64,000 nucleotides of DNA from Kofleriaceae bacterium (lineage in GTDB: Bacteria > Myxococcota_A > Polyangia > Haliangiales > Haliangiaceae), in contig DATAPF010000683.1 in NCBI GenBank assembly GCA_036265355.1, positions 35,457 to 99,456 on the forward strand. Direction: 5' to 3'. Below are positions 37,886 through 45,294 of this stretch, piece after piece. A model generated the notes under the pieces. The model saw nothing but the letters and a program-made list of their open reading frames with translations. It was not told the DNA's origin and searched no databases. The translations under genes and the position numbers were made by a program. Position 1 is the stretch's first letter, and each line of letters starts with the position of its first letter.

Positions 37886-39529
37886 TTGCTCGGCGTCGTC
37901 ATAGGCAGCTACCAGATCATCCGCAAGCTCGGGGAGGGCGGGATGGGCGCGGTGTACCTCGGGCAGCACCAGCTGCTCGGGCGGCGCGCCGCGATCAAGG
38001 TGCTGCTGACCGAGCTGAGCGCGCGGCCCGACATCGTGAACCGGTTCTTCAACGAGGCGCGCGCGGTGACGTCGATCAGCGATCCGGGGATCGTGCAGGT
38101 CTTCGACTTCGGCTATCACACCGACGGCAGCGCGTACATCGTCATGGAGTACCTCGAGGGCGAGCCGCTCGACCGCCGGCTCGCGCGGCTCGGCAAGCTC
38201 GCGGCGTACGACGCGCTGCTGCTGTGCCGCCAGATCGCGAGCTCGCTCGCCGCCGCGCACGCCCAGAACATCATCCACCGCGATCTCAAGCCGGAGAACA
38301 TCTACCTCGTCCACGACGGCGAGGTCGCCTCGGGCGAGCGCTCGAAGATCCTCGACTTCGGGATCGCGAAGCTGTCCGACGACAACCCGGGCAAGATCAA
38401 GACCAACACCGGCGCGCTGATGGGCACGCCGATCTACATGTCGCCCGAGCAGTGCCGCGGGCTGGCCACGCTGGATCACCGCTCGGACATCTACTCGCTG
38501 GGCTGCGTGCTGTTCCACCTGCTGACCGGCCGGCCGCCGTTCGAGGGCGAGGGCATGGGCGACATCATCGCGGCGCACATCCGCGAGCCCGCTCCGGCGC
38601 CGTCGTCGTGCGCGCCGGAGATCGCGCCCGCCATCGATGCGCTCCTGCTGCGCTGCCTCGCCAAGCCGCCCGACGAGCGGTTCCAGACCATGCACGAGCT
38701 CGCGGCGGCGATCGGCCAGATCCTGCCGTACATCACGTCGCCGGCGGCGCCGACCAAGTGGGTCTATGCCTATCCGGGCGGGCCGACACCGGCGCCGCAG
38801 ATGGCGCCGCCGTCGTCATCGTATCCTGGTGGAGGCGCGCCGCAGCCGCCGTATCCGTCGCAGCCGGGGACGCCGACCCCGCCTCCGCCCGCGTCCTCGT
38901 CGTATCCAGGCGGCTCGTATCCAGGCGGCTCGTACCCAGGCGGTCCGCCGCAGCCGCCGTACCCGTCGCGGCCCGGCGCGCCGGTCACCCCGGTGCCACC
39001 GCCGGGCACCCCGGTGCCGCCGCCGCCCGGGTTCGCACCGGCCAAGTCGCCGACCACGCTCGGGGCGAGCAACGGCCAGGTCGCGCCGGGATCGCTGCTG
39101 CCTGCGCCGCGGTCGCGCAAGGTCGGCTGGGTGCTGGCGACGGCGCTCACGCTGGGCGGCGTGGGCGCGGTGGTCGCGGTGATGATGACGCGGGACGGCG
39201 GCCATGCGGCGGCGCACGACGCGGTGATCGGCCAACCTGCCATTCCTGATCCGGCACAGGCGGCGATCCCGCCGGCGCCGGCCGACGCCGCGATCGCGGT
39301 CGCGGTGACGCCCGACGCGGGCCCACCCGACGCGGCGGTGCCGGTGCCGATCGACGCGGCGCCGGTCGCGGCCGACGCGGCGCCGGTGCCGATCGATGCG
39401 CCGTCCCGGCGGACCCACCGCTCGCACGCGCCCGCCGCACCGCACGCCGGCTCCGGCAGCACCACGACTCCACCCGGTTGCGATCGCTCGATCGACACCG
39501 ACTGCGATGGGATTCCAGACGTCCGTTAA
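37886..39529 (+). CDS. Membrane-anchored Hanks-type Ser/Thr protein kinase with a Pro-rich linker
   Basis: Kinase motifs are [51 protein letters not shown] Pro/Gly linker follows, then TM segment [22 protein letters not shown], and a C-terminal DTDCDGIPD motif. No in-frame ATG precedes the domain. TTG 37886 with an RBS-like GAGAAGG is chosen; GTG 37604 and GTG 37682 are alternatives. Confidence 0.85.
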
Positions 39530-39549
39530 CGCTCGCTGAGGGGATAAAG

Positions 39550-42760: not shown

Positions 42761-45294
42761 AATCCCTACCGCTGATCGCTGTCCTGTGTGCGACGTCCAC
42801 GCTCGCGCAGGCCCAGAACAACATGTGCGTGCCGCGCGCGCTCGGCGTGCCGACCCGCGACGGCCCGCCGGACTGGCTCCGGACCCGGACGTCCAAGGTC
42901 AACGGCGCGACCCTGCCACCCAACGACGCGCTCGACGATCCGCGGTGGCTCGGCGCGACCGGCCAGACGTTCGCGCTCGGCAGCGCCAAGGCGCCGCTCC
43001 AGGCGCGCGCGCTGATCAGCACCGAGGATGCGGTCGCCCCGGTGACCAAGTACGTGTACCTGTCGTTCATCGTCGACCTCGACGCCTACGACACCCCGTC
43101 GGCGTCCGAGGTCACGCCGCGCGATCTGTTCCTCGGCTTCCACCGCCCGGGGGCGCCGGCGGGCGGCGAGCGCGGCTACGTGTTCCAGTTCCACCTGACC
43201 GGGCCGGGCGGCGCGCTGTCGACCCACGGCATGGTCACGTCGGCGCCGCCGCCGTGCGACGACTACGCGACCTGCGACGAGGACGCGTCGAGCACGCCGC
43301 ACGACTACTGGCGGGTGTTCCGCGACACCGGCAACACCGCGAGCTACGACTGCAGCGGCCCCGCGGTCGGCGGCCGCGAGCTCGGCGTGCCGGCGGCACC
43401 GGGCACCTCGGCCGCGGCGGCGCCGTGGATGGTGAGCCAGGACGCGGTGCGCTACTGGAAGGTCTCGGCCGGCGATCCGTCGCCGTTCACGCAGAACCGC
43501 TGGGCGGTGCAGATCCGGCTCCCGATGGTCGCGGCCGACGCGAGCAAGACCTCGAACCTTGCCAACGGCATCGAGGAGGGCTCGACGTTCTACTACGAGG
43601 CGACCGGCCGGCTCGCGCACGGCCCGAGCACCGGCACGTTCGCGCCGATCGGCTGGTACCCGCAGACGGCGTCGCTGCGGCCCCCGGTGTGCACCCACAC
43701 CGGCTTCAACACCCTGGTCACCGCCGAGATGAGCGACAACACGGCGGACTGCCCGAACTGCCAGCTCACCAACCTCGCGAAGCTGTCCGACCTCGGGCTC
43801 GGCACGCCCGCGACGTGCGACGGCGGGATCGACATCGACATCGATCACATCGGCGTGCTCAACACCGCGGTGCCGACCGACCCCGAGACGATCGGCCCGG
43901 GCACCGGCTCGCCGCTCAACACGGCGTTCCTCGGCGCGAGCCCGACCTCGGGGACGGTGATCAACCACGTGATCGCGCTGCCGGTGAACACCGCGGCGGG
44001 CACGATCAAGCCGCACCTCCAGGCCCGGTTCCGGCTCGCCGAGTGGGGCTCCGCGCCGTGGTCGGTGCCGGGTGACCTCGGCCAGTGGGCCGACATCCGC
44101 GGCGCCGAGAGCGGGATCTGCGCCAAGCCGCCGACCGGCACCGAACTCTGCGGCGAGAGCGACATGGCTTCCGGCAAGCACGCGCTGATCACGTTCGACT
44201 GGCAGATCGGCAGCGGCCCGAGCGGCGCGAGCGAGTACTGCGAGTTCGGCCTGACCCCGCCGACCGGGACCTGCGGCTCGTGCACCCTCGGCGGCGGCGC
44301 CACCGGGACCCAGGCGACCGGCGGCCTGTGCGTGCCGTCGTTCTACCGGTTCGATCAGTGCATGCTGGTCGAGCTGAACTCGCCCAACGCCCCGGCGACG
44401 TTCGTCCACCAGAGCATCTGGAGCAACATGCGGTTCGGCACGATGTCGACGCTGGCGCACGAGGCGCTGATCGACGCCCGCAAGCTGCCGACCGCGCCGG
44501 GCCAGCTGTACCAGGACATCTACTTCGTGGCGGTGCCGCGCAACATGCCGCAGGTCCTGCCGGCGACGACGACCACCGTCTCGACCGTCCAGACCGCGGC
44601 GCTCAACCTCGCGCTCCACATCGCACAGCCCTACCTCGACGATATCAAGCGCCAGCCGCCGATCCCGGTGGTCGGCGTTCCCCGGCCCAGGCCGTTCGAG
44701 CGCGGCGGCGGCGACAACAACCCGGTCGTCCAGCAGATCCTGCGCGCCCGCGAGGTGATGCCGCCGGCCGACGTGCGCCGGGTCGACGGCCTGCTCACCG
44801 TCGCGCTCGCCCAGAGCCCCAACACCAACCCGAGCTCGACGCTGGTCCACGGCGCGGTCGGCGCGGTCGGGTCGTCGACCGCGGCCGAGCTGGTGCCGAC
44901 CCTCGACATCTATCCGTACTACCAGGTCGACGCCAGGGGCCGGCTGTACTCGCCGATGACCTCGTTCTCGCTGTTCCTCAGCCACGAGAGCACGCTGTCC
45001 GGGATCCGCTACCAGATCGACGGCGCCGACCAGGTCGGCGCGAACGTGTACCACCTGCGGATCCCGATCGGGAACGCGCGCAGGATCCAGGTCCGGGCCC
45101 AGGCGCTGGCCTCCAACGAGGTCCCGCTGCCGCGGGGCAACCCGGCGTGGCCGTGCGCCGGCGGCTGCGCCGCGTGCGGCGGTGTGAACCGGAGCTGCGG
45201 CCTGGTCGCGGCGGTGGGCAGCGGCGGGCCCGGGCTGCTCGCCTGCGTGTGGGTGGTCGGGCGGCGGCGCCGGCAGTCGAAGCGGAAGGGATAG
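42757..45294 (+). CDS. Large Cys-rich secreted protein with a MYXO-CTERM-like C-terminal sorting tail; no recognisable catalytic domain
   Basis: ATG 42757 overlaps the upstream stop (ATGA). Signal is MKSLPLIAVLCATSTLAQAQ. The tail is PCAGGCAACGGVNRSCGLVAAVGSGGPGLLACVWVVGRRRRQSKRKG (Cys/Gly motif, hydrophobic helix, Arg cluster). Confidence 0.85.
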   Translation: MKSLPLIAVLCATSTLAQAQNNMCVPRALGVPTRDGPPDWLRTRTSKVNGATLPPNDALDDPRWLGATGQTFALGSAKAPLQARALISTEDAVAPVTKYVYLSFIVDLDAYDTPSASEVTPRDLFLGFHRPGAPAGGERGYVFQFHLTGPGGALSTHGMVTSAPPPCDDYATCDEDASSTPHDYWRVFRDTGNTASYDCSGPAVGGRELGVPAAPGTSAAAAPWMVSQDAVRYWKVSAGDPSPFTQNRWAVQIRLPMVAADASKTSNLANGIEEGSTFYYEATGRLAHGPSTGTFAPIGWYPQTASLRPPVCTHTGFNTLVTAEMSDNTADCPNCQLTNLAKLSDLGLGTPATCDGGIDIDIDHIGVLNTAVPTDPETIGPGTGSPLNTAFLGASPTSGTVINHVIALPVNTAAGTIKPHLQARFRLAEWGSAPWSVPGDLGQWADIRGAESGICAKPPTGTELCGESDMASGKHALITFDWQIGSGPSGASEYCEFGLTPPTGTCGSCTLGGGATGTQATGGLCVPSFYRFDQCMLVELNSPNAPATFVHQSIWSNMRFGTMSTLAHEALIDARKLPTAPGQLYQDIYFVAVPRNMPQVLPATTTTVSTVQTAALNLALHIAQPYLDDIKRQPPIPVVGVPRPRPFERGGGDNNPVVQQILRAREVMPPADVRRVDGLLTVALAQSPNTNPSSTLVHGAVGAVGSSTAAELVPTLDIYPYYQVDARGRLYSPMTSFSLFLSHESTLSGIRYQIDGADQVGANVYHLRIPIGNARRIQVRAQALASNEVPLPRGNPAWPCAGGCAACGGVNRSCGLVAAVGSGGPGLLACVWVVGRRRRQSKRKG

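Follow-up and report, generated by a model that had tools for sequence, protein, structure and literature searches.

A Conserved Kinase-Linked Locus of a Kofleriaceae Bacterium Encodes a Polymorphic Pair of Putative Envelope Proteins, One of Them Kin to a Family of Contractile Injection System Loci

Introduction

PknB/Stk1 PASTA kinases are bitopic Hanks-type Ser/Thr kinases that sense an envelope cue through their extracytoplasmic part, and TagQRST-PpkA is the threonine-phosphorylation pathway of the Pseudomonas aeruginosa H1 type VI secretion system (H1-T6SS). In myxobacteria, MYXO-CTERM proteins are processed by the myxosortase MrtX and displayed at the surface via the type II secretion system. 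Hanks kinases are numerous in Myxococcota, and we know of almost none with a known input. Here we describe a locus of four genes, designated K, T, R, and C, in which a Hanks-type kinase is encoded together with a putative membrane protein, a putative lipoprotein, and a Cys-rich protein predicted to be secreted. It lies in a 64-kb stretch of DNA from a Kofleriaceae bacterium (GenBank assembly GCA_036265355.1, contig DATAPF010000683.1, positions 35,457 to 99,456), which was analyzed as a whole and is referred to below as the window.

Several described systems offer points of comparison. In the TraA/TraB system of outer-membrane exchange of Myxococcus xanthus, a polymorphic surface receptor defines recognition types (PMC3820747, PMC6372800, PMC11980579). 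The MYXO-CTERM tag has three parts, namely a signature motif containing an invariant Cys, a hydrophobic helix, and a terminus rich in Arg, and lipidation of the tail Cys has been proposed (PMC11980579). Lineage II extracellular contractile injection systems (eCISs) include uncharacterized conserved genes that are specific to individual subtypes (Chen et al. 2019, PMC6899500). CisA, the membrane adaptor of the cytoplasmic contractile injection system (CIS) of Streptomyces, is a 468-aa protein with a disordered N terminus, a central transmembrane helix, and a small periplasmic substrate-binding-like domain (PMC12237407).

The K-T-R-C composition has no characterized counterpart in Pfam, NCBIfam, PADLOC, PHROGs, the PDB, or the literature searched, in line with an annotation made earlier from the DNA sequence alone (the original prediction). 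Two results go beyond that annotation: R and C are swapped together as a cassette, and C is kin to a family embedded in eCIS loci. Our preferred reading, held tentatively at a probability of roughly 45%, is that K-T-R-C specifies a polymorphic envelope recognition complex (R-C), with a conserved kinase module (K-T) as its read-out.

Results

Organization and Conservation of the Locus

The locus consists of four consecutive genes on one strand:

K: 37886–39529, + strand, Hanks-type Ser/Thr kinase, 547 aa, TTG start
T: 39550–40587, + strand, predicted membrane protein, 345 aa
R: 40589–42760, + strand, putative lipoprotein, 723 aa
C: 42757–45294, + strand, Cys-rich protein predicted to be secreted, 845 aa

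The spacings are +20 (K/T), +1 (T/R), and −4 nt (R/C), the last being an ATGA overlap of the R stop and C start codons. Because the GC content of the window is ~72%, raw lists of its open reading frames (ORFs) are noisy. In K, T, R, and C, the GC content is 0.92–0.97 at the third codon position, 0.58–0.71 at the first, and 0.48–0.57 at the second, and this excess at the third position argues that they are genuine genes rather than ORFs that arose by chance. Homologues of each are numerous. The four same-strand genes and their gaps, as first called, are borne out by the coordinates and the third-position GC signal.

Fourteen genome loci were fetched via an alignment of C, and gene order was judged wherever the upstream flank sufficed. 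The order K-T-R-C is found in all eight Kofleriaceae/Myxococcales loci with enough upstream flank (L001, L003–L007, L010, and L012; K in L003 and L004 was detected by phmmer), and in L011 the end of K lies at the contig start. When distant loci are compared (L003 versus L004, L006, or L010), K, T, R, and C are the sole genes in common. The original prediction had treated the four genes as a functional unit that would have to be given up if they were not syntenic elsewhere; synteny was found in 8/8 loci, the four genes are their only shared block, and the gene types are kept together in distant loci as well.

A metagenome scan based on a 16-sequence alignment yielded 80 further loci. In 26 loci and in L101, the gene immediately upstream of a C-like gene terminates in the C-terminal domain of R (R-CTD). 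Sixteen of these are distant metagenome loci (R-CTD hidden Markov model (HMM) E values of 1e-26 to 1e-44), with a Hanks kinase nearby in 9/16 and a T-like gene in 6/16. Gene order is shuffled among them: T-R-C-K in L060 and L085, R-C-K-T in L064, and K-T-R-C in L068 and L092. Homologues of T adjoin C-like genes both in Kofleriaceae and in distant loci. The conserved core is thus the R-CTD and C pair, to which K and T are a frequent, not universal, addition.

A few loci depart from this pattern. L010 has two tandem C genes (10001–15129) that are 38% and 33% identical to the window C. The atypical L008 (1–6749) carries an R fragment, K, C, and a second K, with no T or R in between; its two kinases are 68–71% identical to the window K, and a second locus of the same metagenome-assembled genome (MAG), L011, has the normal order. 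In L060 (8413–10023) and L085 (13135–14739), a shorter second C-like paralogue of ~535 aa, with a lipoprotein-like N terminus and no tail, follows the kinase.

Polymorphism of the R-C Cassette

R and C form a hypervariable cassette that is swapped as one, whereas K and T track the genome. Relative to the window, L005 has flank genes that are 80–95% identical, a kinase domain that is 93% identical, and a T that is 80% identical, whereas the R repeats and R-CTD are 42% and 35% identical and the N- and C-terminal halves of C 40% and 46%. The corresponding values for L002 are 88–97% for the flanks, 44% and 40% for the R repeats and R-CTD, and 39% and 57% for the halves of C; for L012, they are ~85% for the flanks, 93% for the kinase domain, 43% and 35% for R, and 36% and 56% for C. 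At least three R-C allele classes, mutually ~40–50% identical, thus occur in a single clade whose kinase domains share at least 93% identity and whose downstream UbiB and hybrid histidine kinase genes, where recovered, share at least 94%. The UbiB/ABC1 gene next to C is 95–96% identical in L098 and L002, although the R and C alleles of L002 are unrelated to those of the window.

The history of the cassette is also incongruent with that of its surroundings: the C of L005 is 56–58% identical to the C proteins of the distant L003 and L004, yet 46% identical to the window C. Pairwise identities correlate strongly between K and T (0.95) and between R-CTD and C (0.93), with a coefficient of 0.27 between K and C. 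Two loci, L098 and L100, carry alleles of the window class, their C proteins being 93% and 88% identical to that of the window. Against L098, the ratio of nonsynonymous to synonymous substitution rates (dN/dS) is 0.31 for R and 0.41 for C, ordinary values for close alleles that point to replacement by old, divergent alleles rather than to steady rapid change. Four MAG contigs (L001/L009, L002, and L013) start or stop inside R or C, which fits assembly breaks caused by strain-level heterogeneity.

Predicted Architecture of R and C

R begins with a lipobox, LAAC, with the candidate lipid-bearing residue at Cys19 (N terminus MRRTGPAPFLALALGLAAC|S); by inspection of the R family alignment, the column is kept as LAAC. 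A stalk of five immunoglobulin (Ig)-like repeats of ~105 aa follows (residues ~41–565, 40709–42283), edged by [VI]xDxD motifs. The repeats had first been labeled Calx-beta/cadherin-like. The Calx-beta part of that label does not hold for the window R, in which none of the five matches the Calx-beta family (PF03160) at E ≤ 10; the best matches are below threshold, LapA at 20.9 bits (cut-off 27, E = 5e-4) and fn3_6 at 15.4 bits (E = 0.02). Among the 161 R homologues, some distant ones do carry Calx-beta (PF03160) or fn3_6 (PF17766). The stalk is interchangeable, being Ig-like in the window and made of Cys-rich repeats in L101, with R-CTD kept in both. The R frames of L010 and L011 are about twice as long, each with two R-like repeat arrays.

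R-CTD (residues ~549–723, 42233–42757) is predicted to fold into a jelly roll with a CBM6/lectin-like topology at a predicted local distance difference test score (pLDDT) of 92.5. The closest structural matches to it are a cyanophage capsid decoration protein (TM-score 0.62), the lectin-like domain of Cwp84 (TM-score 0.59), CBM6 modules, and knobs of phage fibers and spikes. The likeness of this modeled domain to CBM6, the lectin-like domain of Cwp84, and phage fiber or decoration domains suggests a binding role for R. The lipoprotein with five repeats and a distinct C-terminal β-rich domain, as originally described, agrees with Cys19, the ~105-aa repeats, and the jelly roll of R-CTD.

C has a signal peptide (residues 1–19), and its mature N terminus opens with CVPxAxGVP..GPPxW..DDPRW. 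The protein contains 21 Cys residues, of which at least 16 are conserved in the family, and it matches no Pfam or NCBIfam model, so the description of a Cys-rich, secreted protein without a recognizable domain stands. All 52 close homologues are annotated as hypothetical and come mostly from Kofleriaceae/Myxococcales MAGs. The AlphaFold model (pLDDT 74.8) shows a β-rich core (22–600, 42820–44556), a helical insert (607–709), and a β-sandwich (715–784). Variation in C clusters in blocks (~151–225, 301–350, 376–400, 451–475, and 626–700) inside a conserved scaffold. A search of PDB sequences with the C-family profile gave 0 matches at E ≤ 10, and a whole-chain Foldseek search of the model (PDB and BFVD) returned generic β-sandwich arrays only (arrestin, C3b, and phage proteins; TM-score ~0.1), which is uninformative. 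A catalytic reading of C as a protease or thioester protein, considered because of a conserved H-Q-C motif and the N-terminal Cys, was dropped, as nothing supports it.

C ends in a tripartite tail (798–845, 45148–45291) formed by a Cys cluster, WPCAGGCAACGG..C, followed by GLVAAVGSGGPGLLACVWVVG and then RRRRQSKRKG, with a hydrophobic segment at 816–834; the tail is kept across a 50-sequence family alignment. The original prediction had called it MYXO-CTERM-like. By inspection it has the tripartite MYXO-CTERM architecture, but it does not match the MYXO-CTERM model TIGR03901 (cut-off 20 bits) even at E ≤ 10. Among distant relatives, the tail of the kinase-linked L059 protein scores 21.0 bits with this model and two others score 11–12 bits.

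Predicted Architecture of K and T

K is a bitopic Hanks-type Ser/Thr kinase, as first proposed. The kinase domain (Pkinase, PF00069; residues 9–270, 37910–38695) is matched with E = 1e-45 and 156.5 bits (cut-off 31.7), and a Pro-rich linker separates it from a single transmembrane segment recognized by hydropathy (416–434, 39131–39187). Outside the kinase domain, K has no Pfam domain. Its best NCBIfam match is NF033483 (PknB/Stk1 PASTA; 294 bits, cut-off 450), in which the kinase domain alone is aligned, and PASTA repeats are not detected by Pfam or NCBIfam. Past the membrane, an Ala/Pro-rich linker leads to a terminal 17-aa motif (39476–39526), a Cys-bracketed DxDxDGxxD loop, the core of which recalls the thrombospondin type-3 calcium loop. 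Among syntenic relatives, the kinase domain is 87–98% identical; the preceding linker cannot be aligned, and the terminal motif is invariant in all Kofleriaceae K homologues but one. This invariance, in a locus where R and C vary, makes it probable that the partner on which K docks is itself conserved, T being a candidate. With an extracytoplasmic part that consists of a low-complexity linker and a 17-aa motif, sensing would have to fall to partner proteins.

T is predicted to comprise a signal peptide, a TPR-like helical region (48–107) with two conserved Cys residues, a PEGA-like β domain (~125–207), and two transmembrane helices (235–253 and 298–316) on either side of a CxxxxC loop; its C terminus carries a conserved aromatic residue (..GLAVMGRF). 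The earlier labels of PEGA and TPR find sub-threshold matches only (PEGA, PF08308, 12.1 versus 20.8 bits; TPR_19, 19.7 versus 25 bits), and the sequence pattern fits both folds. The dN/dS of T is the highest in the region, with values of 0.87 and 0.75 relative to close alleles, compared with 0.03–0.41 for the other genes against L098. Differences between close alleles of T seem clustered at the two transmembrane helices and the CxxxxC loop. In L012, a second T-like paralogue (378–1361; 37% identical to the window T) lies ~5 kb upstream of K-T-R-C.

A Candidate Recognition Complex

The preferred reading starts from the observed gene linkage, conservation, domain architecture, polymorphism of the R-C cassette, and kinship of C with the eCIS-embedded family. 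From the signal peptides, lipobox, transmembrane helices, and tripartite tail, and from the other envelope anchors borne by relatives of C, we infer an envelope location. R would present its lectin-like R-CTD at the tip of an Ig-like stalk, and C would be anchored through its Cys-containing C-terminal sorting tag. R-CTD may bind C, exposing the pair at or near the cell surface, where R-C would recognize a variable external partner. The candidates for this partner are the R-C complex of another cell, by analogy with TraA; a phage-tail-like particle, by the eCIS kinship of C; and a surface glycan, by the jelly roll of R-CTD. T, with a periplasmic TPR/β domain and two membrane helices, would link R-C to K, and K would turn engagement or perturbation of R-C into cytoplasmic Ser/Thr phosphorylation. 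The invariant tail of K and the N-terminal half of T, which is conserved, are envisaged to dock on each other, with specificity residing in R-C.

Several points weigh against this reading. The contacts, surface exposure, lipid anchoring, signaling direction, and ligand are features that we infer from the sequences. Surface sorting of C is suggested by analogy only, as its tail fails TIGR03901, and the lack of an informative structural neighbor means that the model of C gives no indication of a ligand or of enzyme status. The identity comparisons that define the cassette rest on MAG and metagenome contigs, and the polymorphism of R-C could equally be that of a structural surface protein under pressure from phages or predators. 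Finally, pairs of R-CTD and C with no kinase in reach (L101, L059, and L066/L067) suggest that the kinase is an add-on, which could govern synthesis of the complex rather than act as its read-out.

These kinase-free pairs also fit an alternative in which R-C is a structural adhesin or surface coat that binds substrate, prey, or matrix glycans, K-T regulate its synthesis or export, and polymorphism reflects escape from phages, tailocins, and grazers. R is indeed laid out like a stalked adhesin, with a lipid anchor, Ig-like repeats resembling LapA, and a lectin-like tip, and variable blocks within a conserved scaffold in C are as expected for exposed loops. However, linkage to the kinase and a T-like gene persists across very distant loci despite shuffling, which argues for more than occasional regulation, and no model of a glycan-binding or adhesin family is matched above its threshold. 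We regard the adhesin alternative as somewhat unlikely, though one to be taken seriously.

A bolder extension of the recognition-complex reading makes R-C a receptor for allorecognition or particle recognition. Allele classes of the lectin-tipped lipoprotein and its C partner, ancient and maintained across species, would be recognition types, and the Hanks kinase would provide a read-out akin to that of a receptor-kinase self/non-self locus; the C-core family described below would be the envelope-side partner of a large eCIS lineage, acting in docking, triggering, or self-recognition, and the kinase-coupled version would be derived from it. Taken as a whole, this extension is doubtful.

The C-Core Superfamily and Its eCIS Branch

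A profile search with the C family retrieved 837 cluster representatives (E ≤ 1e-3). They share a core of ~600 aa that opens with C[IV]PxAxGVPGxxGPPxWW..DDPRWxGA directly after a signal peptide or the initial Met and also contains the motifs ARFR[IL]ANWGS and HQCMLVEL. The window C belongs to this superfamily, its core reading CVPRALGVPTRDGPPDW, DDPRWLGA, ARFRLAEWGS, and QCMLVELN at the corresponding positions. The C-terminal anchors differ among members: a Cys cluster with a transmembrane helix and RRRR, a plain transmembrane helix with a basic end, an outer-membrane protein β-barrel, or four PG_binding_1 domains. A few members have N-terminal Peptidase_S8, TSP_3, or Big_7 modules. No C-core member examined carries a family annotation. 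The novelty claimed for C by the original prediction is therefore confirmed in that the family is undescribed, but C is no orphan.

Roughly half of the superfamily members sampled are embedded in eCIS loci, where the gene order is fixed: gp25, Baseplate_J, Tail_P2_I, X, up2, up1 (TIG), the C homologue, down, an Afp15-like AAA ATPase, and a DUF4157 toxin. The arrangement recurs in 42 loci, namely those of Thermopolyspora (L014) and Lysobacter sp. CA199 (L015), L016, L017, and 38/80 of the metagenome loci; it is present in L102 as well. In the corresponding sub-cluster (for example, L015:5959–14039), up2 encodes ~450 aa, up1 ~400 aa with a weak TIG match, and down ~600 aa, and up2 and up1 are fused in L016 and L017. 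No Pfam family matches up2, up1, the C homologue, or down. In PHROGs, neither T, R, and C nor the eCIS-linked C homologue and three of the four neighbors tested have a match; the fourth neighbor gave one match of unknown function. The eCIS-linked C homologue has no DUF6519 match, and its motifs are absent from the supplements of the paper on the fiber families eBAP1–5, the HMMs of which were not compared. The eCIS literature searched does not describe this branch of the C family, which probably is among the subtype-specific genes of Chen et al. (PMC6899500).

Members without a signal peptide (P0220, P0235, P0363, and others), many of them eCIS-linked, start with MxxC[IV]P, and some have four peptidoglycan-binding domains or a hydrophobic tail. 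In the eCIS cluster of L102 (ENA contig k141_5573281), an Lgt paralogue (PF01790; 12128–12892) directly follows a C homologue whose tail combines a Cys cluster with a hydrophobic helix and RRK. By analogy, this adjacency fits lipidation of the tail Cys by an Lgt-like enzyme.

The eCIS and R-CTD contexts never overlap (42 versus 26 loci), and in a distance tree the C sequences cluster accordingly. An HMM search detected neither R nor R-CTD in the eCIS neighbor genes, and hhalign gave a probability of ~1% for R-CTD against the upstream genes. An hhalign probability of 83% between the R repeats and up1 was taken as generic Ig-fold similarity and set aside.

The fixed position of the sister branch in 42 loci raises the possibility that the K-T-R-C module serves a CIS encoded elsewhere, R-C docking, self-recognizing, or triggering the particle and K-T switching its production or firing, as in TagQRST-PpkA. 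In L100 (Logan contig SRR29536471_13886), which carries a close allele (T, R, and C 82–88% identical to those of the window), a 436-aa DUF4157/eCIS_core protein (6022–7332, − strand) is encoded convergently to C in place of UbiB; such adjacency was seen once among K-T-R-C loci. However, tblastn searches for gp25, Baseplate_J, Tail_P2_I, AAA, and eCIS_core, which included no sheath or tube query, found no eCIS gene in the 64-kb window or within 10 kb of K-T-R-C in the 13 loci L001–L013; identical queries recovered these genes in the 42 sister-branch loci. Given also the separate tree clusters of the kinase-linked and eCIS-linked C proteins and the lack of a detectable R-CTD in eCIS neighbors, we consider service to a distant CIS distinctly unlikely.

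Genomic Neighborhood and Boundaries

Two features bound the locus:

Leader: 37293–37885, no strand, 594 nt, likely promoter region of K, no frame-specific third-position GC signal
UbiB/ABC1-family gene: 45297–46655, − strand, 3′ boundary and outside the system, assigned from its translation and the ABC1/UbiB_helical annotation in the syntenic L098

Upstream lie an Ada/AlkA gene and a PEP-mutase/isocitrate-lyase-like gene, the latter ending at 37292. The leader is unusually long; it has no Rfam match, and a scan for σ70-like promoters, which says little for this organism, gave no hit. An Rfam scan of 36000–47000 gave no credible match. The stop codon of the convergent UbiB/ABC1 gene lies 2 nt past that of C, and a ferritin-like gene, a hybrid histidine kinase, and a phosphoesterase lie beyond. 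The noncoding stretch on the 5′ side and the convergent gene on the 3′ side delimit the unit to exactly K, T, R, and C. Elsewhere in the window, a second Hanks-type kinase domain (12588–13430, + strand), 30% identical to K, has no T-, R-, or C-like neighbors.

These surroundings bear on the idea of an anti-phage or anti-tailocin defense in which R-C would serve at the surface as a decoy or sensor and K would set off an abortive response of the kind described for defense kinases. Among PADLOC models, those of PD-T4-6, a single-gene kinase defense system, give K scores of up to 300 bits, and mad6 is matched as well, and hypervariability is typical of conflict systems. The PADLOC match is, however, essentially to the generic kinase domain, and T, R, and C have none in PADLOC or PHROGs; the neighbors are of a housekeeping type, no defense island is apparent, and relatives keep the locus stably in synteny. 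Defense is accordingly improbable. That the four genes are mere neighbors with no common function, to which the uninformative promoter and terminator scans of the locus are no obstacle, can practically be dismissed in view of the +20/+1/−4 spacings, the block being the only one shared among distant genomes, the re-association of the same gene types in other orders, and the strong pairwise co-variation of K with T and of R with C.

Comparison with Known Systems

K-T-R-C is reminiscent of TraA/TraB in being built around a myxobacterial surface pair, if our localization is correct, that is encoded by adjacent genes, is polymorphic among close relatives, and includes a Cys-containing tripartite C-terminal tag. 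The two systems share no sequence or domain: Pfam and NCBIfam detect neither PA14 nor OmpA in C, R, or T, so that the PA14-like variable domain of TraA, which also has Cys-rich repeats and a MYXO-CTERM tag, and the OmpA domain of TraB have no counterpart in R or C. In contrast to TraA/TraB, which has no kinase, the present unit includes a Hanks kinase and T, its polymorphism spans the whole of R and C, and the C tail fails the MYXO-CTERM model.

TagQRST-PpkA joins a bitopic Hanks kinase to an outer-membrane lipoprotein and other envelope proteins that sense an envelope event, a logic that the locus would share, and the link to contractile injection is here evolutionary only, through the C family. 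Homology is confined to the kinase domain, Pfam detects no ABC-type domain in T, R, or C (FHA and PP2C were not searched for in neighbor genes), and K-T-R-C has no CIS genes nearby. Like PknB/Stk1 kinases, K is bitopic and finds its best NCBIfam match in NF033483; unlike them, it lacks PASTA repeats and has a low-complexity linker with a 17-aa motif as its extracytoplasmic part. K-T-R-C offers defined extracytoplasmic partners and natural allele classes for testing the input of a Hanks kinase.

CisA resembles the eCIS-linked C homologues in locus position (PMC12237407). As a homologue of this branch it was rejected on architecture, since C-family proteins have a β-rich N-terminal core of ~600 aa and a C-terminal anchor. 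With 837 representatives and no annotation, the C-core family is an overlooked conserved gene of many eCIS loci, and the anchors of its eCIS-linked members (outer-membrane β-barrel, peptidoglycan-binding domains, transmembrane helix, and Cys tag with an Lgt paralogue) are unexpected for a particle thought to be assembled in the cytoplasm.

The window C is of one family with this gene, fixed in eCIS loci between the baseplate/fiber genes and the Afp15-like ATPase, with which it shares the ~600-aa core. Unlike the eCIS-linked homologues, it falls in a separate cluster, has R-CTD as its partner instead of up1 and up2, and is ~200 aa longer, with a helical insert and an extra β-sandwich. Understanding either branch, kinase-linked or eCIS-linked, would inform the other and could bear both on the tethering, release, or targeting of eCISs and on strain discrimination by social bacteria.

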